Positions 33,182 through 64,000 of a DNA stretch of 64,000 bases are shown here, one piece after another. The position numbers were made by a program, and so were the translations under genes. The notes under the pieces were generated by a model, which saw only the letters and a list, made by a program, of their open reading frames with translations, had not been told where the DNA came from and did not search any database. Within the stretch, counting starts at the first letter, position 1. Every line of letters begins with the position of its first letter. Source of the stretch: Candidatus Bipolaricaulota bacterium (GTDB taxonomy: Bacteria > Bipolaricaulota > Bipolaricaulia > RBG-16-55-9); assembly GCA_026982655.1 (NCBI GenBank), contig JALSGO010000083.1, forward strand, positions 30 through 64,029, given 5' to 3'.

Positions 33182-33268
33182 AGCCCGCGGGTGCGGAACG
33201 GGCGTGGAATAGAGAGAACAAAGAAGGAAGGCAAAGAAAGAATCTCCCAACGATGGAGGTGCTGTTCG

Positions 33269-35923: not shown

Positions 35924-36238
35924 ATGACCGAAGAACTACTGGTGTTGTTACAGCAGGGGAGCCTGGCGGCCCACCCGGAGGCGAAGCGCCACGCCCAGCG
36001 GCTCGTCCGCACCGTCATCGGCCACACCCAGGGCATCGAGCGGATGATCGAGGAAGAGCGATACTGCATCGACATCTTAAAGCAGATCGCCGCGGTGCAG
36101 GGGCTGCTGACCAAGCTGGCCCACACCGTAAGCGAAGCCCACATGAAACACTGCGTGCGACTGGCCATCGAGGAGGGCCACGGCGAGGAGGCCGTTGAAG
36201 AACTGATGGAGACGCTGAAATACCTGCGGAGCGTATAG
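35924..36238 (+). CDS. csoR: CsoR-family copper-sensing transcriptional repressor
   Basis: 104 aa DUF156 pattern: RLVRTVIGHTQGIERMIEEERYCIDILKQIAAVQGLL...HMKHC, containing the C-H-C Cu(I) ligand set. Confidence 0.88.
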   Translation: MTEELLVLLQQGSLAAHPEAKRHAQRLVRTVIGHTQGIERMIEEERYCIDILKQIAAVQGLLTKLAHTVSEAHMKHCVRLAIEEGHGEEAVEELMETLKYLRSV

Positions 36239-40098: not shown

Positions 40099-42771
40099 AT
40101 GGCCAAGGTCAAAGACCCCGTCTGCGGGATGGAGATCGACGAGGAAGAGGCCGTCGCCTCCCACGTCTACGAGGGGCAGACGTACTCCTTCTGCTCCAAG
40201 GACTGCGAGAAGGAGTTCGTCGAGAAGCCCGAGTTTTATGTCAAGCCGGAGCCCGCCCGCTCGGCGACCACGGGCGTGGACGTCGAGAGCACGGAGCCGG
40301 TGCACGCCGAGCTCCCCCTGGCGGGCTTGGACTGCACCAGCTGCGTGGTGACCGTCGAGCGCACCCTGCGGGAGGTCCCCGGCGTGGAGAGGGCCCACGT
40401 CAACTTCTCGCTGGGGATCGCGCACGTCACCTACGATCCCAAGGAGGCGAGCGTCGAGGACGCCGTCCAGGCGCTCAAGAAGGCGGGCTACGACGTGGGG
40501 GCCGCCGAGATGCGGGTGCGCATCGAGGGGCTTCGCTGCGCCTCCTGTGTGGGCTTCATCGAGGAGGCCCTGCGGAAGGTCCCCGGCGTCTTGGAGGCCA
40601 CGGTGAGCCCCGGAACGGAGACGGCGGTCATCCGCTACGTCCCCGGGATGGTGAGTTTTCCGGCGATCAAGGAAGCGATCGAATCTACGGGCTACAAAAC
40701 GGTCCACCGCCTGGAGGAGGAGGAGCCGCCCGATCAGGAGGCCGCCGCCCGCGAGCGGGAGTACCGCCTGCTCATGCGCCGCTTCCTCTTCGCCGCCGTC
40801 GTCTCCGTCCCGGTGCTCCTTACGGCCTATCCCGAGTTCGTGCCCTTCTTGAGGGATCTTCCCCGGAGCACGATCCGGCTCATCTGGGCCTTCGACGCGC
40901 TGCTGACGCTGCCCGTGTTGTTGTGGTCGGGTCAGCGCTTCTTCACGGGCGCTTGGGCGGCGTTCAAGCACCACAGCGCGGACATGAACACGCTGATCGC
41001 GCTGGGCACCGGCGCGGCGTGGGCCTATTCGACGGTCGCGATCGCCTTCCCTCAAGTGTTCCCCGAGGGGACGGCGGAGCCCTTCTTCGACGTGGCCGCC
41101 GTGGTCATCGCCTTGGTCGTGTTGGGCCAAGCGCTCGAGGTCCGGGCCAAGGGGCGCACCAGCGCGGCGATCAAAAAGCTTCTCGACTTACAAGCCAAGA
41201 CGGCCCGCGTGGTGCGCGACGGGCAGGAGATGGACATCCCCGTGGAAGAGGTGCTCGTGGGCGACGTGGTGGTGGTCCGCCCCGGCGAGAAGGTGCCTGT
41301 AGACGGCGTGGTGATCGAGGGCTCCTCCGCGGTGGACGAGTCGATGATCACCGGGGAGCCGATCCCCGTGGAAAAAAATCCCGGGGATGAGGTGATCGGC
41401 GGGACGATCAACAAGACGGGGTCCTTCAAGTTCCGGGCGACCAAGGTGGGCAAGGAGACGGCGCTGGCGCAGATCGTCCAGCTCGTACAACAAGCCCAAA
41501 GCACCAAGCCCCCGATCGCCCGGCTGGTGGATGTGGTGAGCGGCTACTTCGTGCCCGCGGTGATGATCATCGCGGTGCTGGCGTTCTTGGTATGGTTTAA
41601 TTTCGGGCCGGAGCCGCGGCTGACCTTCGCCCTGGTGACCGCGGTGACCACGCTGATCATCGCCTGCCCCTGCGCGCTGGGGCTGGCCACCCCCATGAGC
41701 ATCATGGTCGGGGTGGGCAAGGCCGCCGAACACGGGATTCTCATTCGCAACGGCGAGGCCCTCCAAAAGGCCTCGAAGCTGGACACGATCGTGCTCGACA
41801 AGACGGGCACGGTCACCAAGGGGAAGCCCGAGCTGACCGACGTGATCGCCGCTGAGGGCTTTACAGAAGACGAGGTGCTCCGCCTGGCGGCCAGCGCGGA
41901 GCGGGCCAGCGAACACCCCTTGGCCGAGGCGATCGTCCAGGGCGCCCAGGCGCGCGGACTGGAGCTTGCGGACCCCGAGACGTTCAACGCCGTCCCCGGC
42001 CACGGGATCGAAGCCACGCTCGACGGCAAGAGAGTGCTCCTGGGCAACGTAAAACTCATGAAGCGCGAGGGCATCGACGTCGGCGGCCTCCGCGAGGCGG
42101 CGGAGCGCCTCTCCGACGAGGGCAAGACCCCGATGTACATGGCCGTCGACGGCCAAGCCGCGGGGCTGATCGCCGTGGCCGACACGATCAAGGAAGACTC
42201 CGTCGCGGCCATTCGGACGCTCCAGGAGCTGGGGCTGGAGGTCGTCATGCTCACCGGGGACAACCGCCGCACCGCCGAGGCGATCGCCCGCCAGGTCCAC
42301 ATCGACCGGGTCCTGGCCGAAGTGCTCCCGGAGCAGAAGGCGGCAGAGGTGAAGAAGCTGCAGCTCGAGGGCCGCAGGGTCGGCATGGTCGGCGACGGGA
42401 TCAACGACGCGCCCGCCCTGGCCCAGGCCGACGTGGGCTTCGCCATCGGGACGGGGACGGACGTGGCCATTGAAGCTGCGGACATCACGCTCGTGGGCGG
42501 AAGCCTCCGCGGGGTGGTCACCGCCATCGAGATCTCCAAGGCCACCATGCGCAACATCAAGCAAAATCTCGTGGGAGCCTTCATCTACAACACGCTGGGC
42601 ATCCCGGTGGCCGCGGGGGTCTTCTATCCCCTCACGGGGATGCTGCTGAGCCCCCTCATCGCGGGGGCGGCGATGGCGTTTAGCAGCGTGACCGTGGTGA
42701 CGAACGCCAACCGCCTGCGGCGGTTCCGGCCCCGGATCGTCTCCGACTTCGAGGAAGGAGGTACGACATGA
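40099..42771 (+). CDS. heavy-metal (copper) P1B-type ATPase with N-terminal YHS/TRASH domain plus two HMA-like domains
   Basis: [13 protein letters not shown]...[12 protein letters not shown] (YHS), LDCTSC and LRCASC HMA motifs, CPC, DKTGTVT and GDGINDAP. Confidence 0.93.
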
Positions 42772-43190: not shown

Positions 43191-44582
43191 ATGGGCGTAG
43201 ACTTGACGTTCCTCGGCGCCGCCGGGACGGTCACGGGCTCCAAGTATTGGCTCTCGGCGGGCGGCAAAAACTATCTCATCGACTGCGGGCTCTTCCAGGG
43301 ACCGGACGAGCTGGAGCAGCTCAACTGGGAACAGCTTCCCATCGCCCCCGCGGAGCTGGACGCCGTGGTGCTGACCCACGGGCACCTCGACCACTCGGGG
43401 TACCTCCCGCGGCTTGCGAAGAGGGGCTACTCCGGGCCGGTCTACGCCTCGGAGGCCACCTGCGCGCTGCTCGAGCTGCTTTTGCCCGACTCGGGATACC
43501 TGCAGGAGGAGCACGCGGGCTACGCCAACCGCAAGGGCTACTCCCGCCACAAGCCCGCGCTTCCGCTGTACACCTACGACCAAGCGCTCGAGTCCCTAAA
43601 GCTCTTACGGCCCGTGAAGCTCGCGGAGCCCTTCGCCGTAGACAAACACCTCACGGTCACGATGCGCCCGGCGGGCCACATCCTGGGCTCCGCGATCGTA
43701 GAGTGCGAGCTTGATAATAAAAAGATCGTCTTCTCCGGGGACCTGGGCCGCTACGATCAGGAAGTGATGAAATCCCCAGCGACGGTGACGCGGGCCGACT
43801 ATCTGCTGGTCGAGTCGACGTACGGCGATCGGGAGCACGGCGAGGACCCCATCGAAGATCAGCTGGCCCCCGTGGTGAACGCCGCTGTCGAGCGCGGCGG
43901 GGCGCTTCTCATCCCGAGCTTCGCCGTGGGCCGCACCCAGCACGTCCTCTACTACCTGCGAAAGCTCCAAGACCAAAAGCGCATCCCCGAGGTGCCCATC
44001 TACGTGGACAGCCCGATGGCCATCGACGCGACGGCGATCTACTGCCGCTTCGGAGATGAGCTCAACCTCAACGTCAACCTGCTGATGGACGACGAAGCCT
44101 GCCCGCTGCGCTGCCGCGACACGCGCTTTACGCGGACGGTCCCCGAGTCGAAGCGGCTCAACGACGCGCCGGGGCCTCTTGTGATCCTCTCCGCGAGCGG
44201 GATGTGCACCGGCGGTCGGATCCTCCACCACCTGAAGCACCGCCTGCCCGACCCCAAGAACACCGTGCTCTTCGTGGGCTACCAGGCCCAAGGCACCCGG
44301 GGCCGCAGGCTCCTCGAGGGAGCCGACGAGATCAGAATTCACGGGATGACCGTCCCGGTGCGGGCGGAGATCGCCCAGATCGACGGCCTCTCCGCCCACG
44401 GAGACGCCCGGGAGCTGATGCGCTGGCTCTCCGGGTTCGAGCGGCCTCCCGAACAGACGTTCCTCGTCCACGGGGAGCCGCACGCCTCCCAAGCGCTGGA
44501 GGAGCGCATTCGGAAGGAGCTGGGCTGGGCGACCCACCGGCCCCGCTACGGCGAGACCGTCTCCTTGGAGGGCAGGGGATGA
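43191..44582 (+). CDS. MBL-fold beta-CASP family hydrolase (RNA-metabolising metallo-beta-lactamase)
   Basis: FLGAAGTVTGSKY, LTHGHLDHSG, and beta-CASP motifs through to SAHGD. Confidence 0.88.
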   Translation: MGVDLTFLGAAGTVTGSKYWLSAGGKNYLIDCGLFQGPDELEQLNWEQLPIAPAELDAVVLTHGHLDHSGYLPRLAKRGYSGPVYASEATCALLELLLPDSGYLQEEHAGYANRKGYSRHKPALPLYTYDQALESLKLLRPVKLAEPFAVDKHLTVTMRPAGHILGSAIVECELDNKKIVFSGDLGRYDQEVMKSPATVTRADYLLVESTYGDREHGEDPIEDQLAPVVNAAVERGGALLIPSFAVGRTQHVLYYLRKLQDQKRIPEVPIYVDSPMAIDATAIYCRFGDELNLNVNLLMDDEACPLRCRDTRFTRTVPESKRLNDAPGPLVILSASGMCTGGRILHHLKHRLPDPKNTVLFVGYQAQGTRGRRLLEGADEIRIHGMTVPVRAEIAQIDGLSAHGDARELMRWLSGFERPPEQTFLVHGEPHASQALEERIRKELGWATHRPRYGETVSLEGRG

Positions 44583-52618: not shown

Positions 52619-55573
52619 GTGAAGCGAATGGCCCGAGGGCCGGACTTCCTGATACGTTGGCGCGTGCCGCTGCTGGTCGCCGTCCTGGTGGCCACCGCGC
52701 TCTTGGGCGCGGCGGTCATGGGAGCCAAGCTCAACGCCGACTTCTCCACGTATCTTTCCCAAGACAGCCCGCTCGTCCGGGAGTTCAACCGCGTCGGCGA
52801 GGTCTTCAAGGCCAACTACGTCGGCATGGTCCTCGTCCGGACCGAGGATCTGTTCACCCCCGAGAACCTCAGGCTGCTGGATCGCCTGACCCGAGCGTAT
52901 AAGTCCATCGAGGGCGTCGACTCGGTGACCAGCCTCACCAACGCCGTCGACTTCCGGCGGGCCGACGGCGGCCTGGTTGTGGGAAAACTCCTCGAGGGCA
53001 AGCCCCTCCCGACGGCGCCCGAGGAGCTGGAGAGGTTCAAGCGCTACGTGCTCTCCAAGGAGATGTACGTCGGCGCGTTGGTCAACGCCAAGGGCACCAC
53101 CGCCGTGATCCTGGTGCGCCTGCTTCCCAAGGTGAATCACTTCAAGGTCGCCGGGCAGATCGACCAAGTCACCCAGGAGATCGCGCCCAATGCAGAAAAC
53201 ATCTACTACGGCGGGATGCCCTTCCTCATCTACTCCATGACCGGGCTCATCCTCGACAACCTCTTCTTCCTGGTGCCGCTGATCATCCTGTTGCTCGTGG
53301 GGGTGCTGGAGCTGGGTTTCCGCCGCCTGGGCGGGGTGCTCGCCCCCCTGACCGTGGTGCTGCTCGCCGTGGTCTGGACGATGGGGATCCTGGCGCTCCT
53401 GGGCCGCCCGATCGACCTTCTGACCGGGATCGTCCCCATCATCCTCATCGCGATGGGCTCGGCGGACGGGATCCACTTCATGCGGCGCTTCTACGAGGCG
53501 CGGGCCGCCGGAGCCGAGCGCCGCGAGGCCGTGAAAATCACAATGAGGGAGATGGGCACGCCGATCGTCTTTACGTCCATCACGACCATGATCGGGTTCG
53601 CCTCGCTGGCCATCTCGAACTTCGACATCATCCGGACGTTCGGCTGGGCCACCGCGCTGGGGATCTTCCTGGCGCTGGTCGTCACCCTGATCGTGCTCCC
53701 CGCCGGACTGTCCTTTGGCCGGGAGCGGGCCTCCGTGCCTGCCGAGACGGACAACAGCGGGAGGCCGCGCAGCGTCCGGGGAGGGAGCCGGGCGATGGCC
53801 GCCCTGGGCGGGGGGATCCACCGGCGTCCGGGCGCGATCGCGCTCCTGACGGTGGGGGTGATCGCGCTGGCCGCGGTGGGGATCCCCCGCATCGTGGTGA
53901 ACGTGGACTGGTCGCTCTGTCTGGCACGGGGCAGCAAGCCGTACTTGGCGGAGATGCTGCTGCGCCGGGAGTTCGGCGGCTCCCTGCCCCTGCTCGTGTC
54001 CGTGAAGGGCGACGTCAAGGACCCGGCGACGCTGGAGACGATGCGGGCCGTGGAGCGCCACCTCGACGCGCTGCCCGAGGTGAGCGAGGCCGAGTCGATA
54101 GCGTCGGTGCTGGCGGAGATGAACTGGACGCTCAACGGGCGCTTCGCCGTGCCCACCGAGCGGGCTCAAGTCAACAACTTGTGGTTCCTGCTCCAGGGAC
54201 AAGACGTGCTCGATCAGATGGTCCGCTCGGACAACCAAGAGGCGCTGGTGCAGGCGAAGGTGGCCTCGCTGGGCACGGCGGTGATCAGCCGGGTGGTCGA
54301 GGACGTGAACGCCTTCTTGAGCCGCCTGCCCCAGAAGTTGGTCGTCGTGGACGCCGCCCAAGCGCCCCCGGATGCTCAACAGGCGCTGAGGGAACTCCAA
54401 GCTCAGCAAGTGAAAGAGGCTCTGGCTCAAGACCTGCGGGCCAAAGGCCTTTCGGTTGAACCCGCGGCGCTCGAAGCTGTTGTTGAGGCAGCGCAGAGCT
54501 GGACCCCCGGCGAACCCGACTACGCGGCGCTCGGCGAAGCCATTGAGAAATATTTGCTGAGCCCCGAGTCCGAGGTGCCGTTCGACGACCCTGCACAGGC
54601 CGCGACGATAGCCGAGTCGATCACCACAGCGCTCAGCGAGCGAGGCGGACGGCCATTGAGTGTCTCTGAGTTAGAAGCGTTGCTGCGCCCCCAGGTCGAG
54701 ACGTCCTACCCCGAGGACGTGGCCTGGCTGGCAGAGGCGTTAGTTTATCGCGTCGATGAGTTTTTAGATGCCCGTCGCGTGGAGGCGGCTTACGCGCAGC
54801 TGGCCGCCCAGCTGCCCCCGGAGGCGCGCTCCAACACGGATCTTGCGAAGAAGCTGCGCGGCGACCTTTGGGGGCTGACGACTGCGACGCTGGCGCTCGG
54901 TCCCCAGCAGTACGAGTCCCTGCAGGCCCAATATGGTCTGGACCTCGCGCGGACGGTGACCCTGGCCGCCGAGCCCTCGGGCCTAGCCCCGGTGCTGGAT
55001 CAGATGGAGAAGGAGCTGCTCCCCACCCAGATCGAGAGCACGGCGCTGGCCTTGTTGGCCGTGACGCTCTTGCTGATTTTGGTGTTCCGCTCGCTGCGGG
55101 CGGGGCTTTTGGGGATCGTCCCCGTGGGCCTGACCATTCTGGTCAATTTCGCAGTGTTAGGCTACTTCGGCATCGGCCTGGACTCGTTCACCGCGATGAT
55201 CGCCAGCATCACCATCGGCCTGGGGATCGACTACGCGATCCACTTCACCCACCGCTTCCGGAAGGAGTTCGAGCGCTCCGGCGACGAGCGGACGGCCCTC
55301 ATCACCACGTTGCAGACGACGGGCGTGGCGATCCTCATCAATTCGTTTTCGGTGGGCGCGGGGTTCGCCGTGCTGCTCTTGGCCGGCGGCCAGCACATCC
55401 GGCTCTTGGGAGGCCTTACGGCAATAGCGCTCCTGGTGAGCGCGCTCTTCACCCTGGTCGTGCTCCCGGCGCTCACGCTCTTGTGGAAGCCGCGCTACTT
55501 TCAGACCCCCGTCGTCGTGGAGCCGAAGCTGCGCCCTGAGCCCGAAGCCGAGAGGGGAGTTCAAAGCGCGTGA
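52619..55573 (+). CDS. MMPL/RND-superfamily exporter 2 (984 aa, with a large extra helical insert in the second loop)
   Basis: Two TM bundles with GSADGIHFMRRFYE and GLGIDYAIHFTHRFRKE. GTG 52619 or ATG 52628 is the start. Confidence 0.85.
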   Translation: MKRMARGPDFLIRWRVPLLVAVLVATALLGAAVMGAKLNADFSTYLSQDSPLVREFNRVGEVFKANYVGMVLVRTEDLFTPENLRLLDRLTRAYKSIEGVDSVTSLTNAVDFRRADGGLVVGKLLEGKPLPTAPEELERFKRYVLSKEMYVGALVNAKGTTAVILVRLLPKVNHFKVAGQIDQVTQEIAPNAENIYYGGMPFLIYSMTGLILDNLFFLVPLIILLLVGVLELGFRRLGGVLAPLTVVLLAVVWTMGILALLGRPIDLLTGIVPIILIAMGSADGIHFMRRFYEARAAGAERREAVKITMREMGTPIVFTSITTMIGFASLAISNFDIIRTFGWATALGIFLALVVTLIVLPAGLSFGRERASVPAETDNSGRPRSVRGGSRAMAALGGGIHRRPGAIALLTVGVIALAAVGIPRIVVNVDWSLCLARGSKPYLAEMLLRREFGGSLPLLVSVKGDVKDPATLETMRAVERHLDALPEVSEAESIASVLAEMNWTLNGRFAVPTERAQVNNLWFLLQGQDVLDQMVRSDNQEALVQAKVASLGTAVISRVVEDVNAFLSRLPQKLVVVDAAQAPPDAQQALRELQAQQVKEALAQDLRAKGLSVEPAALEAVVEAAQSWTPGEPDYAALGEAIEKYLLSPESEVPFDDPAQAATIAESITTALSERGGRPLSVSELEALLRPQVETSYPEDVAWLAEALVYRVDEFLDARRVEAAYAQLAAQLPPEARSNTDLAKKLRGDLWGLTTATLALGPQQYESLQAQYGLDLARTVTLAAEPSGLAPVLDQMEKELLPTQIESTALALLAVTLLLILVFRSLRAGLLGIVPVGLTILVNFAVLGYFGIGLDSFTAMIASITIGLGIDYAIHFTHRFRKEFERSGDERTALITTLQTTGVAILINSFSVGAGFAVLLLAGGQHIRLLGGLTAIALLVSALFTLVVLPALTLLWKPRYFQTPVVVEPKLRPEPEAERGVQSA

Positions 55574-55624: not shown

Positions 55625-56407
55625 ATGAAGCGTAGTGGAAGTAGAACGAGAACGGTGATCCTCGGACTGACGGTGACGTTGCTCCTGGCGGTCGGCGCTT
55701 GGGCGATCACGGGCGACGAGGTGCTGCAGAGGTCTCAAGAGGCGATGCGGCCCGGCCAGGACGCGACGATCACGGAACGGATGACGATCGCCAAGCCCGA
55801 CGGCCAGACGGACGTGCTGGAGCTCAAGATGTACATGAAGGGGGAGAAGACGCTGATCCGCGTCCTCGCCCCGGAGGACTTCGCGGGCATTGGGCTGTTG
55901 ATCCTGCCCCAGGAGGACGGCGGCGAGGAGATCTGGCTCTATCTTCCGGCCTTCCGGGACGTGAAGCAGATCGTGGCCGAATCCTTGAGCGAGGGCTTCG
56001 TCGGCTCGGACTTCGCCTACGAAGATCTCACGGTGCGCTACACCTCCAAGTGGGACGTGACCTCCATGAGCGAGGAGGAAGGGCAATACGTCCTGACGCT
56101 GGCTCCCAAGCCCGAGGCCCAGCTCAGTTACAGCGGGGCGCGCATGTGGGTGGACCAGGAGACGTTCCTGCCCACGCGGGCGGAGTTCGACCGGGAGGGA
56201 GAGCTGCTCAAGGTGCTGACCCTCTCGGAAGTGCAGGACTTCCCCAGCGTCGCGGACCCCGAGACGAGCTACCCCACCCCGACGCGGATCGAGATGGCCA
56301 ACGTGAAGACGGGGAGCCGGACCCTCATCGAGCTTTTGGAGGTCGAGTACGACACCGGGCTCTCGGACGACTTCTTCACCGTACGCAACCTCAAGCGGGG
56401 CGAATAA
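55625..56407 (+). CDS. LolA-like outer-membrane lipoprotein-sorting-type protein 1
   Basis: Signal peptide and motifs IWLYLPAFRDVKQI and GSDFAYEDL, typical of LolA-like partners of MMPL exporters. Confidence 0.7.
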   Translation: MKRSGSRTRTVILGLTVTLLLAVGAWAITGDEVLQRSQEAMRPGQDATITERMTIAKPDGQTDVLELKMYMKGEKTLIRVLAPEDFAGIGLLILPQEDGGEEIWLYLPAFRDVKQIVAESLSEGFVGSDFAYEDLTVRYTSKWDVTSMSEEEGQYVLTLAPKPEAQLSYSGARMWVDQETFLPTRAEFDREGELLKVLTLSEVQDFPSVADPETSYPTPTRIEMANVKTGSRTLIELLEVEYDTGLSDDFFTVRNLKRGE

Positions 56408-56460: not shown

Positions 56461-57798
56461 ATGGGAATGGCGCAAGCGACGGCGACGGCAGATCGCACGG
56501 AAGCCCAAGTGCGAGCGGTTTTAGACCGCCTGCTCGAGGCCATCCGCCCGAGGGAGTTCGCCGTGCGACTCTGGAACGGGGAGGTCATCGAGCCCGACCC
56601 CGGCCATCCGGCCCGCTTTACGCTCGTACTTAACCACCCGGGCGCGCTGGGGCGGATGCTCTGGCCGCCCTCGGACCTCACGATAGGAGAAGCCTACATC
56701 CGGGGGGACTTCGACGTCGAAGGAGATCTCATCGCCGCCTTCTCGCTGCGGGAGCACTTCACCCGCCCGCCGTTCCGCCTTACGGAGATGCTGCGCATGG
56801 TCCGCGTCCTGCGCCGAGCGGCCCGGACGGCCCCTCCCCTCCAGCCCGATCGAGGGCCCGCGCGCCTGCGCGGGGCGCGCCACTCCAAGGAGCGGGATCG
56901 GGCCGCCGTCCGCTACCACTACGACGTGGGCAACGACTTCTACGCCCTGTGGCTCGACCGCAACATGGTCTACTCCTGCGCGTATTTTGAGACGGGCACC
57001 GAAGATATTGACACAGCCCAGGAAGCCAAACTGGACTACATCTGCCGCAAGCTGCGCCTTCAGCCGGGAGAACGGCTGTTGGACATCGGCTGCGGCTGGG
57101 GCGGACTCCTGATGCACGCGGCCCAGCACTACGGCGTCGAGGCCGTCGGCATCACGCTAAGCCCCCCGCAAGCCGAATGGGCCCGGGAGCGCATCCGCGA
57201 GCGGGGGCTCGCCGACCGCTGCCGGGTGGAGGTCGCCGACTATCGCGACTTCGACGAGGGCCCCTTTGACAAGCTGGTGAGCGTCGGGATGTTCGAGCAC
57301 GTGGGCGCGAAGATGCTCCCCGTCTACTTCCAAAAGGCCTGGTCGCTGCTTAAGCCCGGCGGGGTTTTTCTCAATCATGGGATTACGCTGGGCCCGGGCC
57401 CGCGCGACGAGCCGAGCTGGTGGGGACGCACGCTCTTTAAGCAGGGGCTGTTCATCCAGCGATACGTCTTCCCCGACGGCGAGCTGGAGCCGATCCACGA
57501 GTCGCTCCAGGCCGCCGGTGAGGTGGGCTTTGAACTTAGGGATGTGGAGTCGCTGCGCGAGCACTACGCGCTCACCCTGCGCCGCTGGGTCCAGCGCCTG
57601 GAGGCCCGCCACGACGAGGCCGTCCGCGCCGCGGGCGAGGCCGTTTATCGCATCTGGCGACTGTTCATGGCCGGATCGGCGTATCACTTCGAGATCGGGA
57701 GGCTCAACGTCTACCAGGCGCTCTTCGTCAAGCCCGATCGCGGGCGGAGCGGTTTGCCTCTGACCCGAGCCGACTGGTATGCTCGCCCTAGTTCCTAG
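56461..57798 (+). CDS. cfa: cyclopropane-fatty-acyl-phospholipid synthase family methyltransferase
   Basis: HYDVGNDFYALWLDRNMVYSCAYF, LLDIGCGWGGL and VSVGMFEHVG motifs. Confidence 0.9.
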   Translation: MGMAQATATADRTEAQVRAVLDRLLEAIRPREFAVRLWNGEVIEPDPGHPARFTLVLNHPGALGRMLWPPSDLTIGEAYIRGDFDVEGDLIAAFSLREHFTRPPFRLTEMLRMVRVLRRAARTAPPLQPDRGPARLRGARHSKERDRAAVRYHYDVGNDFYALWLDRNMVYSCAYFETGTEDIDTAQEAKLDYICRKLRLQPGERLLDIGCGWGGLLMHAAQHYGVEAVGITLSPPQAEWARERIRERGLADRCRVEVADYRDFDEGPFDKLVSVGMFEHVGAKMLPVYFQKAWSLLKPGGVFLNHGITLGPGPRDEPSWWGRTLFKQGLFIQRYVFPDGELEPIHESLQAAGEVGFELRDVESLREHYALTLRRWVQRLEARHDEAVRAAGEAVYRIWRLFMAGSAYHFEIGRLNVYQALFVKPDRGRSGLPLTRADWYARPSS

Positions 57799-57815: not shown

Positions 57816-58022
57816 ATGAACGAGTCGTTCACCGATCCCGTCTGCGGGATGACGATCGATAAGAGCCAAGTCGCCGCGACCCTCGAGTACGGAGGGAAAA
57901 CGTACTACTTCTGCTCCCCCGGCTGCAAGGTCGCCTTCGAGCGCGAGCCCGAGAGGTATGCCGAGTCGGAGTCCAAGCCGGAGTCCTCGGAGGGGAGCGC
58001 TCCCGGGTCGTCCTCTCCTTGA
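57816..58022 (+). CDS. stand-alone YHS/TRASH-domain metal-binding protein
   Basis: DPVCGMTIDKSQ...YYFCSPGCKVAFEREPERY, followed by a Ser/Glu/Pro tail. Confidence 0.8.
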   Translation: MNESFTDPVCGMTIDKSQVAATLEYGGKTYYFCSPGCKVAFEREPERYAESESKPESSEGSAPGSSSP

Positions 58023-58188: not shown

Positions 58189-60585
58189 ATGTCGACGCGA
58201 TCGCTCAAGGAGGAGAATCCCTCGATCATGTACAAGAAATACGTGGAATGGGTGCTGAACCGCCCCAAACTCGTGCTCGCGCTGATCGCGCTGGTGACCC
58301 TGGGGTTCGCCGCGGGGCTCCCGCGCATCCAGACGGACACCGACCCCGAGAACATGCTCCGTCCCGACGCCCCCATCCGCGTCTACAACGACCAGGTCAA
58401 AGCTTGGTTCGACCTCCAAGACGTGCTCGTCTTAGGGATCGTCAACGACCAAGACCCCAACGGGGTCTTGAACGCCCAAACGCTGGGGAAGATCTACCGC
58501 ATCACCCAAGAGATCCTCAAGATCGAGGGCGTCGTCCGCCGCAACGTCTGGAGTTTTCCGACGACCAACCACATCCGGGTGCGGGGAGGCACCCTCGTCC
58601 AAGAGCGTTTGCTCAAGACCGATCGGCCCACGGATGCCGACATCGCCGCGCTCGCCCAGGCCCTCGACGGAAACCCCCTCTTCGAGCGCATTCTCATCTC
58701 GGACGACCGCACGTTGGCCGCCCTCTACATCCCCGTGGAGGACGACGTGGACGCGAAACCCATCACGGATCGCATTCAGGAGATCGTCCAAGCCGAGGGC
58801 GGGCCGGAGGAGTATTACCTCGGCGGACAGCGCGTCGCCGAGGACGTCTTCGGGGTGCTGATGTTCCAACAGATGCTGCTGCTCTCGCCCTTGGTGGCCC
58901 TCGTCATCTGGGTGGGCTTGTGGCTCATGTTTCGAAGGCTGCGCTTTGCGTTTGTCTTCTCCCCCTTGTTGATCGCCTTGGTCTCGGTGATCTGGACGAT
59001 GGGGCTCATGATCTGGCTCGGGATCCCCGTCCACATCATGAGCTCCATGGCCCCCGTGTTTCTGATGAGCATCGGCGTGGTCGACGGGATCCACATCCTC
59101 AGTGAGTTCGTCGATCAGTACCCTAAGAGCCGCAACCGCCGCCGAGCGATCCTCGACACCCTGGTGGCCCTCAAGCGGCCCCTGCTCTACACCTCGCTGA
59201 CCACCGCCGTCGGCTTTGCGTCTTTGTACTTCACGGACATCCCGCCCGTTAGGGTCTTCGGGGTGTTCGTGGCCTTCGGGATCCTGGCCGCCTGGGTGCT
59301 TACGATCACCATGGTCCCGGCGATCGTGATGGTCCTGCGCGAGCAGGATGCCAAGGAGCTCGCTGCCAAGGAGAACCGCCTGGCCCGCGGGCTCCAAGCC
59401 CTGGGACGCTTCAGCATCCGGCGCCGCCGGGCCGTGCTCGTCGGGGGCCTCCTCGCTTTGGCCGTCGCGGGCTTCGGGCTGACTCAAATTCACATCGACG
59501 ACAGCCCCGTCTGGTGGTTCAAGAAGGGCCAGCCCATCCGCGAGGCCACCGCTTTATTGAACGAGAAGCTGGGAGGGACTTCGCTCCTGTATGTCGTGCT
59601 CGAGGGGGAGAAGGGCACGATGAAAGAACCCGAGGTGCTGCGGTACCTCGAGGAACTCCAGCGGTATCTGGAAGAATCCCCGTTGGTGGGCAAGACGACC
59701 TCGCTGGCCGACGTCGTCAAACGCATCAACGAGGCCTGGAACGACGACGATCCTCGGTATCGCGTGATCCCCGACTCCCGCAGGGCCGTAGCTCAGTTCC
59801 TGCTGCTGTACCTCTCCTCGGGGGACCCCAGCGATCTACAAGACTTCGTGACCCATGGCACGGGCTACGACAAGGCCAACGTCATCGTACAGGTGAAGAG
59901 CCCCGGTTCGGCGGCCATGGAGCGGGTCGTAGCACGGGCGCAAGCCTTCGTAGAGGGGAATCCGCCGCCCCGGGGGGTGCGGGTGAGCTTCGCCGGGCCG
60001 GGGTACTTCAATGCGAAGTGGAACGAGGAGATGTTCCGCGGGATGATGCGCGCCGTGGCCGGGGCCACCCTCGTCGTGTGGTTGCTGCTGTCGCTCAACT
60101 TCCGCTCGATGCGTTGGGGGATCGTGGGGCTGCTCCCCTTAGGGTTTACGATCGTGTTCACCTACGGGATGCTGGCTTTGCTGGGGGTGCCCTTCACCAT
60201 GCCCATCGAGGTGATCTCGGCCCTCTCGCTGGGGATGGCCGTGGACTTCGCCATCCACTTCGTCCAACGCTTCCGCGAGCGCTACGCCGAGACTCAAGAC
60301 GTAGAGGGCTCCTTGAGGTGGACCATGGGCGGGCCCGGCGTGGCCATTTTGCGCAACGCCGTCATCCTGTTTGTGGGCTTTACGGTGCTGATCTTCGCGC
60401 CGCTTACGCCGTATATCACCGTGGGGGTCTTTATCGCGATCATCATGGCCCTAAGCTCGCTGACCACGCTCTTCTTCTTGCCCGCGCTCATACGGCAGTT
60501 TGCCCCCTGGCTGGTGGACCGGCCCGCGCGGGCGGCCGTCCCCGCGGCCGCTGAAGTGGAAGCGGAAGTGGAACCGAAAGCCTAA
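58189..60585 (+). CDS. MMPL/RND-superfamily exporter 3
   Basis: Two TM bundles with GVVDGIHILSEFVDQY and GMAVDFAIHFVQRFRE. Confidence 0.85.
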   Translation: MSTRSLKEENPSIMYKKYVEWVLNRPKLVLALIALVTLGFAAGLPRIQTDTDPENMLRPDAPIRVYNDQVKAWFDLQDVLVLGIVNDQDPNGVLNAQTLGKIYRITQEILKIEGVVRRNVWSFPTTNHIRVRGGTLVQERLLKTDRPTDADIAALAQALDGNPLFERILISDDRTLAALYIPVEDDVDAKPITDRIQEIVQAEGGPEEYYLGGQRVAEDVFGVLMFQQMLLLSPLVALVIWVGLWLMFRRLRFAFVFSPLLIALVSVIWTMGLMIWLGIPVHIMSSMAPVFLMSIGVVDGIHILSEFVDQYPKSRNRRRAILDTLVALKRPLLYTSLTTAVGFASLYFTDIPPVRVFGVFVAFGILAAWVLTITMVPAIVMVLREQDAKELAAKENRLARGLQALGRFSIRRRRAVLVGGLLALAVAGFGLTQIHIDDSPVWWFKKGQPIREATALLNEKLGGTSLLYVVLEGEKGTMKEPEVLRYLEELQRYLEESPLVGKTTSLADVVKRINEAWNDDDPRYRVIPDSRRAVAQFLLLYLSSGDPSDLQDFVTHGTGYDKANVIVQVKSPGSAAMERVVARAQAFVEGNPPPRGVRVSFAGPGYFNAKWNEEMFRGMMRAVAGATLVVWLLLSLNFRSMRWGIVGLLPLGFTIVFTYGMLALLGVPFTMPIEVISALSLGMAVDFAIHFVQRFRERYAETQDVEGSLRWTMGGPGVAILRNAVILFVGFTVLIFAPLTPYITVGVFIAIIMALSSLTTLFFLPALIRQFAPWLVDRPARAAVPAAAEVEAEVEPKA

Positions 60586-60625: not shown

Positions 60626-61486
60626 ATGAGGCAGAGCACAAGCAACAGACTCCTCACGACCGGACGGACGTTGGGGCTCCTGGCCCTGGGGCTGCTCCTC
60701 ACGCTGGGGGCCTTCCCCGTGGTCCTCACGCAGGCCCAAGCGCAAGGTCCCTCGGCGGAGGAGATCATGCAACAGGCGAAGGACCGCTGGCAGGGCGAGG
60801 ATTTCACGTCGGCCGTGCGGCTTACGACCGCGGAGCCCGGCGGCGGGGAGACCGTCCTCGACGTCGACTTCAAGGCCAAGCTCATCGAGGAGAGCCGGGA
60901 CTCGGGTGCGTTCCGCTACAAGGTGTTGGCCCGCGTCACGGCCCCGGAGGACGTAGCGGGCTGGGCGGTCCTCATCTGGGAGCAGGAGTTCCCCACCCCG
61001 GACGACATCTGGCTCTACCTGCCGGCGCTCGAGTCCACGAAGAAGATCTCGCTGGAGAACTTCCGTAACCCGCTCTTTGGAAGCGAGTTCGTGTTCGAGG
61101 ACGTCATCGGGCGCGAGCCGGGGCTCGACACCCACGAACTCCTGCGGGAGGAGACCCTCAACGTCGGCGGCGAGGACCGCCCCGTCTGGGTGATTAAGAG
61201 CACGCCTCAGGACCCCGATCTGGCGGGCTTCGCCTACCGCATCACCTACGTGGACCGGGAGACGCTCTTGGAGCTCCGCATGGAGCTCTACAACGACACC
61301 GACGCGTTGATCAAGCTCTACCAAGCCGAGGAGGTGCGAGAGCTGCAGGGCATCCCCACGTGGGTTACGGCGACGGCGGAGAACCTCGAGACGGGTCGAG
61401 TCACCACCTTCGAGTTCCTCGAGCCGGTCTACAACACGGGCGTTCCGGACGAGATCTTCGACCCGGAGCGGTTGGGGCAGCCGTAA
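60626..61486 (+). CDS. LolA-like outer-membrane lipoprotein-sorting-type protein 2
   Basis: Signal peptide and motifs IWLYLPALESTKKI and GSEFVFEDV, paralogous to 55625..56407. Confidence 0.7.
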   Translation: MRQSTSNRLLTTGRTLGLLALGLLLTLGAFPVVLTQAQAQGPSAEEIMQQAKDRWQGEDFTSAVRLTTAEPGGGETVLDVDFKAKLIEESRDSGAFRYKVLARVTAPEDVAGWAVLIWEQEFPTPDDIWLYLPALESTKKISLENFRNPLFGSEFVFEDVIGREPGLDTHELLREETLNVGGEDRPVWVIKSTPQDPDLAGFAYRITYVDRETLLELRMELYNDTDALIKLYQAEEVRELQGIPTWVTATAENLETGRVTTFEFLEPVYNTGVPDEIFDPERLGQP

Positions 61487-61502: not shown

Positions 61503-61580
<78 letters not shown>

Positions 61581-61681: not shown

Positions 61682-63124
61682 ATGAATGAGAAGACGTGGA
61701 TGATCGTGATGGTCGTGCTCGCGCTGGCCCTGGGACTGTGGTGGCTCTCCACACCGAAAGGCCCCCGGATGGAGATGGGGCAGAGAGCGGCCCCTGCGGC
61801 CGAGGAGGCCGTAGCCGGGGCTCAAGGGGGGCTGAACCGCCTGGCGTTCGTCGACCCGAGGACGGGCAGTCGGTTCACGGTCGAGGTCGGCCCGGCCACC
61901 CACGGCGTAGGCGTCCTGCCGGACGGCTCGAAGGCGTACGCCACCAGCTTCGGCGCCGACGAGATCTCCGTAGTCGATTTGGCCCAGAAGAAGACGGTCA
62001 AGACGATCTCCATCGGGGCCAAGTCCCACCATGTCGAGATCAGTCCCGACGGGCGTTGGGCCTACATCACCGCCGCGGACGACACCGTGGCCGTGATCGA
62101 CACCCGCACCGACACCCTGGCCGCGAAGATCGCCGTCCCGCCCGGCCCGATGTACGCCGTCTTCTCGCCCGACGGGCGCTTCGCGTACGTCACCAGCATG
62201 AAGGGCGGCGTGGTGAGCGTCCTCGACGTCGAAGCCCAGCAAGTCGTCCGGGAGATCCCCGTCGGGAAGGGGCCGGATCACGCGGCGCTCACCCCCGACG
62301 GGCGCTTCCTCTACGTCGCAAACCGCAACGACGGGACCGTGAGCGTCATTGACACCCAGCAGGGGAGCGTTATAGCGACGATCCCCGTGGGGAAGGGACC
62401 TCATGGGGTGGCCGTCGTCGAACGCGGTGGGAAACTGCTCGTCTTTGTGGGCAACCGCGGCGAGACGACGATCTCCATCATCGATCCCACGACGAACGCA
62501 GTCCTCGAGACGTTCGATCTGGGGGTAAGCCCCGAGCACCTCACGCCCTCCTTCGACCGCAAGACGCTCTACATCGGGAGCATCCCCGCGAAGCAGCTCT
62601 TCGTCTACGACGTCGAGCGCGGGGAGATCGTGCAGCGCTTCGACGTCGAAGGGGAGATCCACCAGATCGTCGTCGTGCCCCCACGCCAACAGGCCCGCAT
62701 GCCCATGCCGAGGATGCCCATGGAGCCTGAGCAAGAGAAGGGGAAAGAGATGGGCATGCCTATGGAAGTCGAGTACGAGCTCGTCGAGGTCGAGGGCGGC
62801 AGCTACCGAAATATCGACGCCCCCACCCTCTGGGCGATGCTCCAACAGAAGGACTTTCTGCTGATCAACGTCCACATCCCCTACGCGGGCGAGCTGCCCG
62901 AGACGGACTTGTTCATCCCCTTCAACGCCATTGAAGAAAACCTCGACAAGCTCCCGGAAGACAAGGACACGAAGATCGTGGTCTACTGCCGCAGCGGGCC
63001 GATGAGCGCGAAGGCCGCCGCGACGCTGGTGAAGCTGGGCTACACGAACGTCTGGAACTTAGAGCAGGGGATGCGCGAGTGGCAGGCGGCGGGGTTCCCA
63101 CTCTTGACGAACAAGGCGGAGTAG
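61682..63124 (+). CDS. YVTN-type beta-propeller / Met-rich linker / rhodanese fusion protein (membrane-anchored)
   Basis: N-terminal TM helix, then repeated PDG..(A/L)Y(V/I)...(D/G)TVSVID blades. Linker is RMPMPRMPMEPEQEKGKEMGMPME. The C-terminal rhodanese carries the active-site loop VVYCRSGPMS. Confidence 0.8.
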   Translation: MNEKTWMIVMVVLALALGLWWLSTPKGPRMEMGQRAAPAAEEAVAGAQGGLNRLAFVDPRTGSRFTVEVGPATHGVGVLPDGSKAYATSFGADEISVVDLAQKKTVKTISIGAKSHHVEISPDGRWAYITAADDTVAVIDTRTDTLAAKIAVPPGPMYAVFSPDGRFAYVTSMKGGVVSVLDVEAQQVVREIPVGKGPDHAALTPDGRFLYVANRNDGTVSVIDTQQGSVIATIPVGKGPHGVAVVERGGKLLVFVGNRGETTISIIDPTTNAVLETFDLGVSPEHLTPSFDRKTLYIGSIPAKQLFVYDVERGEIVQRFDVEGEIHQIVVVPPRQQARMPMPRMPMEPEQEKGKEMGMPMEVEYELVEVEGGSYRNIDAPTLWAMLQQKDFLLINVHIPYAGELPETDLFIPFNAIEENLDKLPEDKDTKIVVYCRSGPMSAKAAATLVKLGYTNVWNLEQGMREWQAAGFPLLTNKAE

Positions 63125-63131
63125 GTGCCCC

Positions 63132-63886
63132 ATGGTCTTAGACCCATCCGAGCCCAACCCGGCGCAAAAGGCGATGCCCTCGAAGGCCTTCCCCATAGAT
63201 CCGGAAGCGACGGGGGTCACGCGGGCGCGCTACGACCGCGTGGCCCCCGTCTATGACCTCTACGAAGGCCTGATGGAAGGGCTCTTCTTCCGCTCGTGGC
63301 GGCGGCTCGTCTGGGGCGCCGTCCAAGAGCACCTGGAGCACCTGCAGCAAATCGCAGCCGCCACGAGCGCAGCGAAGCCCCGCTTGCTGGAGGTCGGCGT
63401 GGGCACGGGCAAGAACCTGCCCTACTACCCCGGAGGCGTCGAAGCCCTAGCCATCGACCTCAGCGAGAAGATGCTGGAGCGCGCCCGGAAGCGGGCTCTC
63501 AAGCTGGGAAAGCCCGTAGATTTGCTCCCGATGGACGCCCAGGCCCTCGCCTTCCCCGACGAGTCCTTCGACGTCGTGGTGGCCACGTTCGTGTTCTGCT
63601 CTGTGCCCGATCCCGTCCTAGGGCTCCGCGAAGTCAACCGGGTATTGAAGCCCCACGGACAGGTGGTTTTGCTGGAGCACATGCGTCCGCGCTCCGAGCG
63701 CTTGGGGAAACTCTTCGATCTCTTCAATCCCCTCGCCGTGAGGCTGACCGGGGCGAACATCAACCGCCGTACGGTCGAAAACGTCCGCAAGGCGGGCCTC
63801 GAACTTGAGAGCGTAAGGGAGCTCTCGGCCCAAGGAATCGTAAAGCTTATCGTAGCCCGAAGGGGCTCACCCGAAGGAGGTCAGCC

Positions 63887-63890
<4 letters not shown>
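63132..63890 (+). CDS. class I SAM-dependent methyltransferase (Methyltransf_11/UbiE-like)
   Basis: LLEVGVGTGKNL motif I and FDVVVATFVFCSVPD motif. Confidence 0.8.

Positions 63891-64000
<110 letters not shown>

Follow-up and report, generated by a model that had tools for sequence, protein, structure and literature searches.

We analyzed a 64,000-nt stretch of DNA from a Candidatus Bipolaricaulota bacterium (contig JALSGO010000083.1; hereafter the window), near the 3′ end of which a single gene encodes a transmembrane (TM) helix, a YVTN β-propeller, a methionine-rich linker and a rhodanese domain. A previous reading of the letters alone (the sequence-only reading) had proposed this fusion, and all four parts were found at the locus (Table 1), the encoded protein being identical to P0001 of public collections. 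The linker, which that reading had placed at about 62699-62770, is present but lies 3 nt upstream of this position. The window is a copper island, with two CopA genes and with CsoR, cupredoxin and YHS genes.

We modeled the fusion protein with AlphaFold2 (AF2) on an alignment of 44 sequences (mean predicted local distance difference test score, pLDDT, 89.7; predicted template modeling score, pTM, 0.67). In the model, the propeller consists of seven four-stranded blades (residues 43-332), the seventh being closed by the C-terminal strand 329-332 together with the N-terminal strands 43-68 (three first strands), an alpha/beta rhodanese fold spans residues 366-475, and disorder is predicted at residues 27-38 and about 337-361. 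The propeller, of YVTN/lactonase type by Pfam and NCBIfam, scores 140.5 bits against TIGR02276 (cut-off 27.85; five repeats detected by NCBIfam), and its closest sequence and structural relatives are generic YVTN proteins, with 1L0Q as the best match. The C-terminal part matches PF00581 over residues 398-470 (50.6 bits, Pfam cut-off 22.2) and its Cys aligns in VVYCRSGPMS (residues 433-442), so that the complete rhodanese with a catalytic-loop Cys claimed by the sequence-only reading is borne out. The N-terminal helix has an h-region of 19 residues with no AxA site nearby, for which reason we assign it as a signal anchor; distant fusion homologues and stand-alone rhodaneses carry lipoprotein signals (LAAC lipobox) instead of the anchor, which supports the extracytoplasmic location that had also been proposed. 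These signals support a protein anchored in the cytoplasmic membrane and predicted to face its outside.

Table 1. Position of the fusion gene, its parts and the other annotated features in the window
Feature	Position (nt)	Strand	Basis or remark
Fusion gene, 480 aa, ATG start, TAG stop	61682..63124	+	Open reading frame (ORF) list and sequence
Signal-anchor helix, residues 3-23	61688..61750	+	AF2 helix; MNxK and hydrophobic stretch kept in orthologues
Seven-bladed YVTN propeller, residues 43-335	61808..62686	+	TIGR02276, Pfam, DSSP strands; 1L0Q top structural match
His74 codon, blade 1, T-H-G	61901..61903	+	Invariant; aligns with V-H-G CuZ-ligand position of NosZ
His116-His117 codons, blade 2, S-H-H doublet	62027..62032	+	Invariant; compare HH doublet H129/H130 of the CuZ site (PMC8179356)
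His200 codon, blade 4, P-D-H	62279..62281	+	Invariant; aligns with P-L-H CuZ-ligand position of S. meliloti NosZ
His241 codon, blade 5, P-H-G	62402..62404	+	Invariant; P-H-G also in NosZ ligand motif SPHGINTAPDG
His286 codon, blade 6, P-E-H	62537..62539	+	Invariant
His327 codon, blade 7, I-H-Q	62660..62662	+	Invariant
Met-rich disordered linker RMPMPRMPMEPEQEKGKEMGMPME, residues 339-362	62696..62767	+	Lineage-specific; Met enrichment, pLDDT
Single-domain rhodanese, residues ~366-476, NVH...CRSGxMS subfamily	62777..63109	+	PF00581, alignment to solved rhodaneses
His398 codon, motif INVH	62873..62875	+	Invariant in family alignment and stand-alone members
Active-site loop Cys436-Arg-Ser-Gly-Pro-Met441-Ser442	62987..63007	+	Cys alignment; C436 and M441 invariant
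Class I S-adenosylmethionine (SAM)-dependent methyltransferase, 252 aa, cytoplasmic, PmtA/UbiE-like	63132..63890	+	Pfam Methyltransf_11, NCBIfam
5′ end of putative CopB-like P1B-type ATPase gene, (EH)n His-rich N-terminus	63887..64000	+	Translation, L002 synteny
Rieske protein	ends at ~33181		
CopA	33191-35848		
CsoR with Cu(I) fingerprint	35924-36238		
MMPL (HAE3 RND transporter)	36246-38663		
YHS-HMA CopA	40099-42771		
Cupredoxin	ends at ~43142		
beta-CASP hydrolase	43191-44582		
MMPL (HAE3 RND transporter)	52619-55573		
LolA-like protein (TP_0789-like/DUF1329)	55625-56407		
CFA synthase	56461-57798		Pfam, NCBIfam
YHS protein	57816-58022	+	Pfam, NCBIfam
MMPL/HAE3 RND transporter	58189-60585	+	Pfam, NCBIfam
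LolA-like protein (TP_0789-like/DUF1329)	60626-61486	+	Pfam, NCBIfam

The propeller contains exactly seven histidines (H74, H116, H117, H200, H241, H286 and H327), one per blade except for blade 3, which has none, and blade 2, which carries an HH doublet. All seven are invariant in 26 sequences with a mean column identity of 41%, and since only 32 of the 293 propeller columns are invariant, the hypergeometric probability of finding all seven His among them is 1e-7. The resulting signature, xHG / xHH / PxY / PDH / PHG / xEH / xHQ for blades 1-7, is kept in relatives that are fused to a rhodanese, fused to a DsbG-like domain (P0016), reduced to the propeller, or extended by an Ig-like or Cys-rich tail. 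A fusion from an archaeon (locus L011) shows a variant with PEH instead of PDH in blade 4, and generic YVTN and propeller-cupredoxin proteins have only 2-3 of the seven. In the AF2 strand order, each His lies at the P-x-G motif opening the first, innermost strand of its repeat, and we conclude from the model that the seven His would ring the central channel, in positions competent to ligate metal at the hub. The ring would most likely bind copper, probably as more than one ion.

In the rhodanese, Cys436 aligns with the catalytic Cys of the solved rhodaneses 6MXV, 3TP9, HP1203 and Sud, and the C436-RSGPM-S442 loop, invariant in the family, lies without gaps on their CxxGxxS/A loops; PspE, GlpE and YgaP were also among the solved-rhodanese matches. 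This is the six-residue active-site loop of the sulfurtransferase type, phosphatase- and arsenate-reductase-type rhodaneses having a loop of seven residues; the classical reaction of rhodaneses is the formation of thiocyanate from thiosulfate and cyanide. The fold and the catalytic Cys in a short C-X4/5-S loop are shared with PspE, GlpE, YgaP and 6MXV, of which PspE is periplasmic and YgaP membrane-bound, and a YgaP-like_TM gene adjoins the fusion gene in loci L001 and L002. In contrast, loop position +5 is Arg in 6MXV, 3TP9, HP1203 and Sud (presumably Arg in YgaP, Gln in PspE and Ser in GlpE as well) and an invariant Met here, a replacement that could weaken anion binding. Further differences from the solved rhodaneses are NVH instead of DVR, an invariant GE(L/I)PxTD motif, the association with copper islands and the propeller fusion. 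The motifs INVH398...GE(L/I)PxTD...VYC436RSGxM441S are invariant and define a subfamily of at least 774 clusters at E <= 1e-10; the proteins are almost all stand-alone, with a length of 140-160 aa, and we regard them as secreted lipoproteins because the examined ones carry lipobox signals. His398, Cys436 and Met441 (nt 62873-62875, 62987-62989 and 63002-63004) are all invariant, and this Cys/His/Met set of the rhodanese could itself be a Cu(I) site.

For the gene context, we counted copper markers (P1B ATPase, YHS, CsoR-like and multicopper oxidase genes) within 10 kb of unique anchor proteins, at loci gathered from five sources. The results show at least one marker at 7/7 loci of fusions with the strict seven-His signature and at 5/5 loci of seven-His propellers without a rhodanese, where a P1B ATPase is present in all five, and hence at 12/12 loci with the strict signature overall, compared with 2/95 loci of generic YVTN propellers (Fisher P = 3.7e-14). 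Stand-alone members of the rhodanese subfamily have a marker at 29 of 59 loci despite short contigs (P = 8.7e-13 against the same generic propellers), and other fusions at two of four; the archaeal fusion, with no copper marker on its short contig, is counted among the latter because its blade 4 reads PEH and not PDH. The copper link drawn by the sequence-only reading is thus strongly backed by gene neighborhood. Moreover, both modules are independently linked to copper and the window gene is their fusion, which provides a Rosetta-stone argument for joint action. Generic YVTN propellers (archaeal S-layer 1L0Q, YncE, hydrazine synthase beta) are the closest relatives of the propeller, but they lack both this association and the signature, 1L0Q having M, Q, L, K, S, A and Y at the x-position of PxG.

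The CsoR-like neighbors carry the C...H-x3-C Cu(I) fingerprint in the window, in L005, L090 and L092 and in most rhodanese-linked copies, the exceptions being L010, L141, L144a and L153. Identification of these neighbors as CstR persulfide sensors was rejected for most copies, in which the Cu(I)-ligand His is present. In the CsoR-family regulators of L141 (2986-3264), L144 (11790-12080) and L153 (3270-3545), His replaces the second Cys (C-H-H), a pattern that presumably resembles the RcnR/InrS Ni/Co sensors, and some members of the rhodanese subfamily may not be tied to copper.

Two other pairings of propeller and metal or rhodanese chemistry were compared with the fusion. Its two halves weakly match TIGR03866 (a YVTN-type propeller) and TIGR03865 (a CXXCW rhodanese-like Cys protein), families that NCBIfam both names after an association with PQQ-dependent catabolism and that we take to be encoded by adjacent genes, but the scores are 137 vs. 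a cut-off of 287 and 27 vs. 128, and PQQ dehydrogenase or ABC transporter genes are absent here. The zinc metallochaperone AztD is likewise a periplasmic β-propeller that handles a metal, with a weak NCBIfam match (30 bits, far below the cut-off of 400), but the metal is another one and AztD has neither the seven-His ring nor a rhodanese.

The module that follows the propeller varies. In P0016 it is a DsbG-like thioredoxin fold with a CxxC motif, encoded in a MerR-CopA-DUF302-CopZ operon, and in a sister clade it is an Ig-like domain carrying a conserved SSHHR motif, with or without a PCCAF...CACEHH tail; P0019 has no C-terminal module at all, and its CsoR-CopA-cupredoxin-CHRD island is syntenic with that of the fused P0013. 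Thiol-redox genes (DsbD_TM/DsbD_2, DsbA-like, TlpA/AhpC-like) recur nearby. Because different modules follow the same propeller and thiol-redox genes lie close by, the propeller appears to be the constant part and the domain that follows it an interchangeable module providing thiols or metal ligands. In the sister clade (P0023-P0037; loci L091, L092 and L093), the seven-His propeller is followed by the Ig-like C-terminus LRFKITLDTHAGDL...SESSHHR and, optionally, by the Cys/His-rich tail LDLSLPCCAFKNP...NCACEHHQ. Gene order in this clade is fixed (CopA, YHS, an uncharacterized gene, cupredoxin, a second uncharacterized gene, propeller), and in L091 and L092 the propeller gene is followed by a PsrABC-like Mo/FeS/NrfD oxidoreductase. 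A Pfam scan found no family for the alternative C-terminal modules or for the recurrent uncharacterized neighbors of the seven-His propellers. A small number of subfamily rhodaneses are also found fused to DUF1573, a HYDIN/VesB-like Ig domain (P0176, P0192, P0229; L016, 290-889), and DUF1573 genes flank the seven-His propeller islands in L001, L090 and L093.

We further analyzed the linker, RMPMPRMPMEPEQEKGKEMGMPME, in which 7 of 24 residues are Met, whereas Met makes up 2.1-2.2% of the remaining protein and of the products of 11 neighboring genes (binomial P ~5e-7 per segment, about 3e-4 after correction for all segments). Its pLDDT falls below 50 at residues 337-348 and 358-361, and its clustered MxM/MxxM motifs in a flexible extracytoplasmic segment are those of Met-rich Cu(I)-binding segments. 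Flexible Met-rich segments of CueO, PcoA/CopA and CusF-type periplasmic proteins bind Cu(I); the linker resembles them in its MxM/MxxM-rich, flexible and extracytoplasmic character and in its copper-resistance context, but it is a predicted binder, it connects two domains, and neither its position nor its presence is conserved in the family. It is confined to P0001-P0006 (at least 70% identity) and absent from the orthologues P0007-P0014, in which a brief stretch lacking Met links the two domains. In other fusion lineages, inserts rich in Met, Asp and His are located elsewhere, after blade 1, as exemplified by MEGEEMGNMGQGMGDMDMEMS in Anaerolineae-type fusions and by MGPSEMMMEPGHDDGNQMDMKMKPG in the archaeal fusion, so that Met-rich segments occur at differing positions in three fusion lineages, and these inserts are not homologous to the linker; in family propellers without a rhodanese, no Met-rich segment was found. 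Because the linker is restricted to one clade and the inserts of other lineages are placed differently, the Met-rich element is, by comparison of these sequences, a recurrent, lineage-specific accessory and not part of the core. The sequence-only reading had made the linker its key copper evidence and had regarded a lack of conservation as telling against its proposal; the linker itself indeed fails to be conserved, which goes part of the way against that proposal, although independent Met/His-rich inserts did arise in the archaeal and Anaerolineae-type fusions. The stronger copper signal is given by the seven invariant hub His and the copper-island context.

How rare the fusion is was assessed in several collections. 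In a collection of 5.8 billion proteins, the propeller-rhodanese architecture occurs in 23 clusters among the best 120 of 4,296 homologues; of these 120, P0002-P0014 show the full architecture at 49-82% identity, and a second set, ~35% identical, combines a YVTN propeller with the same rhodanese (P0021, 22, 29, 33, 35, 45, 48, 51 and 55). Across 185,579 species, each represented by a single genome, full-length fusions make up only five of the best 80 loci; they belong to a Candidatus Bipolaricaulota (78% identity), an unclassified bacterium, a Methanosarcinales archaeon, a Caldilineales and a Spirochaetes. Metagenome contigs, which served only to enlarge the sets of stand-alone rhodaneses and generic propellers, yielded no additional full-length fusion among the matches listed. 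A profile search gave five 50%-identity clusters with a single-stretch, full-length match among the matches listed (P0011, P0024, P0280, P0015 and P0060); its top matches are dominated by giant multi-propeller YVTN proteins, so that it bounds the family size only roughly. Public sources hold no functional name beyond “YVTN family beta-propeller protein” and “cytochrome D1 domain-containing protein,” and the searchable literature held nothing relevant on β-propeller or extracytoplasmic rhodanese components of copper-resistance islands. The fusion is therefore unusual, as the sequence-only reading had stated: it is rare, recurrent across phyla and without an assigned function in public sources. 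Its component domains are already known; what is new, as far as the literature shows, is the seven-His propeller family, the copper-linked rhodanese subfamily and the fusion of both.

Based on these observations, we propose that the fusion protein is an extracytoplasmic copper-handling protein, in which a multi-His hub and a thiol or persulfide partner domain would serve copper homeostasis, a reading to which we assign a probability of about one half. It rests on sequence, predicted structure and gene context: from the observed architecture, conservation, location signals and neighborhood we infer metal binding, the identity of the metal, sulfur transfer and the direction of flow, and with them the coupling of copper binding to sulfane-sulfur chemistry suggested by the sequence-only reading. 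In this model, the fusion joins two modules each of which alone would be a component of copper-efflux islands. The seven-His hub would bind copper exported by the neighboring P1B ATPases, and Cys436 would act with its thiol or persulfide on copper that is held by the propeller or passing to it, by donating sulfane sulfur or by serving as a thiolate ligand or reductant. In the lineage of the window, the Met-rich linker may act as a Cu(I)-capturing arm, as may a shorter segment with Met that follows the anchor helix. The gene would be cotranscribed with those of the methyltransferase and the CopB-type ATPase, the latter exporting the copper that the fusion protein handles. If the hub binds copper, it would be a third type of multi-His copper propeller after those of NosZ and thiocyanate dehydrogenase (TcDH), and if the rhodanese feeds it sulfur, the system would be informative about the origin of the sulfide in Cu-S clusters such as CuZ, and about the way in which anaerobes neutralize periplasmic Cu(I), given that multicopper oxidases depend on oxygen and are not available to them. 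Two uncharacterized families linked to copper-resistance islands, which are well studied, are defined here, the seven-His propeller and the lipoprotein-type NVH...CRSGxMS rhodanese subfamily with its at least 774 clusters.

Several points weigh against a copper-handling protein of this kind. Gene neighborhood does not tell copper apart from other soft metals such as silver. Orthologues can lack the rhodanese or have another module in its place, and as P0015 and P0017-P0019 lie in the same islands without it, the role of the propeller cannot depend on sulfur transfer; likewise, the Met-rich linker is missing in 8 of the 14 orthologous fusions. The pTM of 0.67 suggests an undefined arrangement of the domains, and because the chain exits at the far end of the innermost strand of blade 7 in the model, the rhodanese may be placed opposite the His ring where linkers are short. 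Finally, the conserved methyltransferase and the MMPL/LolA-like genes are left unexplained.

A different use of the same two modules would be the building of a copper-sulfide cluster, with the hub holding a CuZ-like [Cu4S] or a TcDH-like trinuclear center and receiving sulfide in cis from the rhodanese persulfide, either as an oxygen-free Cu(I) sink or as a Cu-S redox enzyme of a new kind, served by cupredoxins whose genes lie close by. For a comparison with NosZ, we used the S. meliloti protein (pSymA, L094:7970-9889). The CuZ ligands of P. stutzeri NosZ are H129, H130, H178, H326, H382, H433 and H494 (PMC8179356), and the corresponding S. meliloti motifs, assigned by eye against that list and not by alignment to the P. 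stutzeri protein, are DLHHP, TVHGL, SPHGINTAPDG, GPLHTAYDG, HNHT and EPHD. These motifs are YVTN-like repeats with His at the two PxG positions used here (x and G). In the number and pattern of its His the fusion protein matches the CuZ ligands, for in both proteins seven His are spread over six blades, blade 3 has none and one blade carries an HH doublet, and the seven invariant His occupy equivalent within-blade positions; the doublet, however, lies in blade 1 in NosZ and in blade 2 in the seven-His family. An hhalign comparison of the fusion with S. meliloti NosZ gave a probability of 15% in a register shifted by one blade, in which the repeat columns coincide, H74 being matched to the His of V-H-G and H200 to that of P-L-H; we take it only as evidence for the equivalence of within-blade positions, and specific homology to NosZ was rejected. 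Also rejected was membership in the clade III (lactonase-type) L-NosZ family (NF052460; 103.7 bits vs. a cut-off of 700), a level of score that is generic and reached by unrelated YVTN proteins, including the propeller-cupredoxin proteins P0061, P0069 and P0112, and in the Sec-type NosZ family (TIGR04246; 19.5 bits vs. 625). The fusion contains no C-terminal CuA cupredoxin domain (Cx2FCx3Hx2M), a motif that is present in the S. meliloti control, and it differs from NosZ in being membrane-anchored, encoded in copper-resistance islands and terminated by a rhodanese instead. TcDH, likewise a propeller of seven blades, houses a trinuclear copper site in its central tunnel (PMC9456337), but it is a soluble periplasmic enzyme of thiocyanate oxidizers with a cytochrome partner, whereas the gene studied here lies in a copper efflux context and includes a fused rhodanese.

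Besides the ligand pattern, a copper-sulfide cluster is favored by the fusion of a sulfur-donor-type domain, by cupredoxin genes one to two genes away in L005, L090, L091, L092 and L093, and by the sulfur-type PsrABC-like oxidoreductase adjacent in L091 and L092. Apart from the missing NosZ homology and the displaced doublet, it has against it that rhodanese-less orthologues keep all seven His, that no nosDFYL-like genes were seen in the annotated neighborhoods, and that the context is one of detoxification islands and not of respiration. We therefore regard it as unlikely that the propeller is a Cu-S cluster scaffold, analogous to CuZ and evolutionarily separate from it, with sulfur delivered in cis by the rhodanese and Cu(I) by the Met-rich arms. 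If it were, it might lock up exported Cu(I) independently of oxygen in anaerobes or act as a new Cu-S redox enzyme, and as a self-contained system it would model the acquisition of sulfide by biological Cu-S clusters. A separate family of 410-475 aa (P0061, P0069, P0078, P0087, P0112 and P0116) combines a YVTN propeller with a C-terminal cupredoxin, an architecture that resembles NosZ, and in five of its blades the PxG position is His (PHG/PHG/PHN/PRA/PHx/PHW/PRK); P0061, P0069 and P0112 score 96-136 bits on the L-NosZ model, vs. its cut-off of 700.

The exchange of the rhodanese for a DsbG-like thioredoxin fold on the same propeller also speaks for thiol repair or redox control in the envelope under copper stress. 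Here, the C-terminal domain, through the rhodanese Cys in the window protein and the DsbG-type CxxC in P0016, would reduce or protect copper-damaged (for example, sulfenylated or mis-oxidized) Cys of secreted proteins, the propeller being a platform for substrates or partners and its His copper-sensing or structural. DsbD_TM/DsbD_2, DsbA-like and TlpA/AhpC-type thioredoxin genes close by in L001, L005, L091 and L092 are in agreement with this hypothesis, and in E. coli both PspE, a periplasmic rhodanese, and DsbC/DsbG contribute to thiol redox in the periplasm and to tolerance of copper. It leaves unexplained the seven invariant His at metal-ligand positions, the Met-rich arms and the propeller-only orthologues in the same islands, and a single-Cys rhodanese would need an external reductant for turnover; we consider it improbable.

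A third possibility is that the protein makes no contact with metal and is an accessory periplasmic subunit of the MMPL/HAE3 RND transporter and its LolA-like partner, acting with the CFA synthase and the PmtA-like methyltransferase in lipid or envelope remodeling. MMPL and LolA-like genes are each present in 5/7 strict-signature fusion loci, and the order MMPL-LolA-like-fusion, with the pair directly upstream, is common to the window, L001, L002 and L010; in addition, the window encodes a CFA synthase, the best characterized relatives of the methyltransferase are phospholipid N-methyltransferases, and the propeller weakly matches the complex stabilizer of MmpL3/TtfA (42 bits). That match is, however, far under its cut-off of 600, MMPL is found in only 1/5 loci of seven-His propellers without a rhodanese vs. 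5/5 for P1B ATPases, the stand-alone rhodanese subfamily associates with CopA, CsoR and YHS and not with MMPL, and the hub His would have no explanation, which makes such a role very unlikely. Equally hard to credit is a sulfur-compound enzyme outside copper detoxification, acting for example on thiocyanate, thiosulfate or polysulfide, whose copper cofactor would account for the copper genes nearby, for although the trinuclear copper propeller of TcDH (PMC9456337), the thiocyanate-forming chemistry of rhodaneses and the DUF302 gene, a family linked to sox clusters (PMC5037610), that flanks rhodanese-methyltransferase pairs would fit it, the annotated neighborhoods of most loci showed neither sox, sqr or cyanase genes nor any others for dissimilatory sulfur metabolism, the context is one of copper regulators and exporters (CsoR or MerR, CopA, CopZ, multicopper oxidase), and the family is membrane-anchored beside efflux pumps.

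The two genes downstream of the fusion had been described by the sequence-only reading as coupled to it. The methyltransferase starts 8 nt past the fusion stop codon, and the GTG start of the next gene (63887) overlaps the methyltransferase stop. In the window and at eight further loci, an orthologue of the methyltransferase (E 1e-45 to 1e-129) is encoded immediately next to the gene with the rhodanese, which confirms the coupling; the eight comprise five fusion loci (L001, L002, L009, L010 and L013) and three loci of stand-alone rhodaneses (L051, L061 and L068) in which a DUF302 gene precedes the pair. The resulting triad of DUF302, secreted rhodanese and methyltransferase is conserved in metagenome-assembled genomes of Anaerolineaceae/Chloroflexota (L051, 3642-5231; L061, 9338-11028; L068, 9422-10984), and DUF302 is also found after CopA in L089 and within the L005 island. 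The nearest characterized relatives of the methyltransferase are PmtA-type phospholipid N-methyltransferases, its best solved relative being 8YS9 (79 bits); assignment as PmtA itself (NF045882) was rejected at 90.8 bits vs. a cut-off of 390, so that only class I SAM membership is established. An ArsM-like identity was dropped as well, the scores being far below cut-off and the protein having a single Cys, where ArsM enzymes need several conserved Cys.

The second gene, read previously as an (EH)n protein, does not encode a separate small protein but by synteny probably the His-rich N-terminus of a CopB-like ATPase cut by the contig end. The syntenic L002 gene starts with MSAHKREHEHEHEH and encodes a 732-aa P-type ATPase with a CPH motif (ACPHALGLA) and an EHEHEH N-terminus, whereas the contig end leaves only the (EH)n N-terminus of the window copy; from this synteny, we assign it as a putative CopB-type (P1B-3, CPH-motif) ATPase. 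The (EH)n tract is encoded by a perfect hexanucleotide repeat, (CGAGCA)10, at 63940-64000, and the public contig (64,034 nt) ends about 34 nt past the window; the gene is truncated because the assembly probably broke inside this repeat.

Another low-complexity sequence, a perfect 39-nt poly-G (61504-61542), lies between the LolA-like and the fusion genes. At this site, the syntenic L002 has ~590 bp extra, encoding a YgaP-like_TM protein (DUF2892) and an 86-aa ORF, and remnants of the YgaP-like_TM gene follow the poly-G in the window. Two-color Illumina chemistry reads dark cycles as G, and the poly-G may be a sequencing or assembly artifact or mark a real deletion.

The copper island of the window also includes three MMPL/HAE3 transporters, two LolA-like proteins and one CFA synthase, and the MMPL-LolA-like pair recurs in the copper islands of L001, L002, L005, L010 and L090. 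Finally, a gene for a metallo-beta-lactamase-fold protein of the beta-CASP type (RNase J/CPSF-like) stands beside CsoR and CopA both in the window (43191-44582) and in the distant island L005 (2728-4122).

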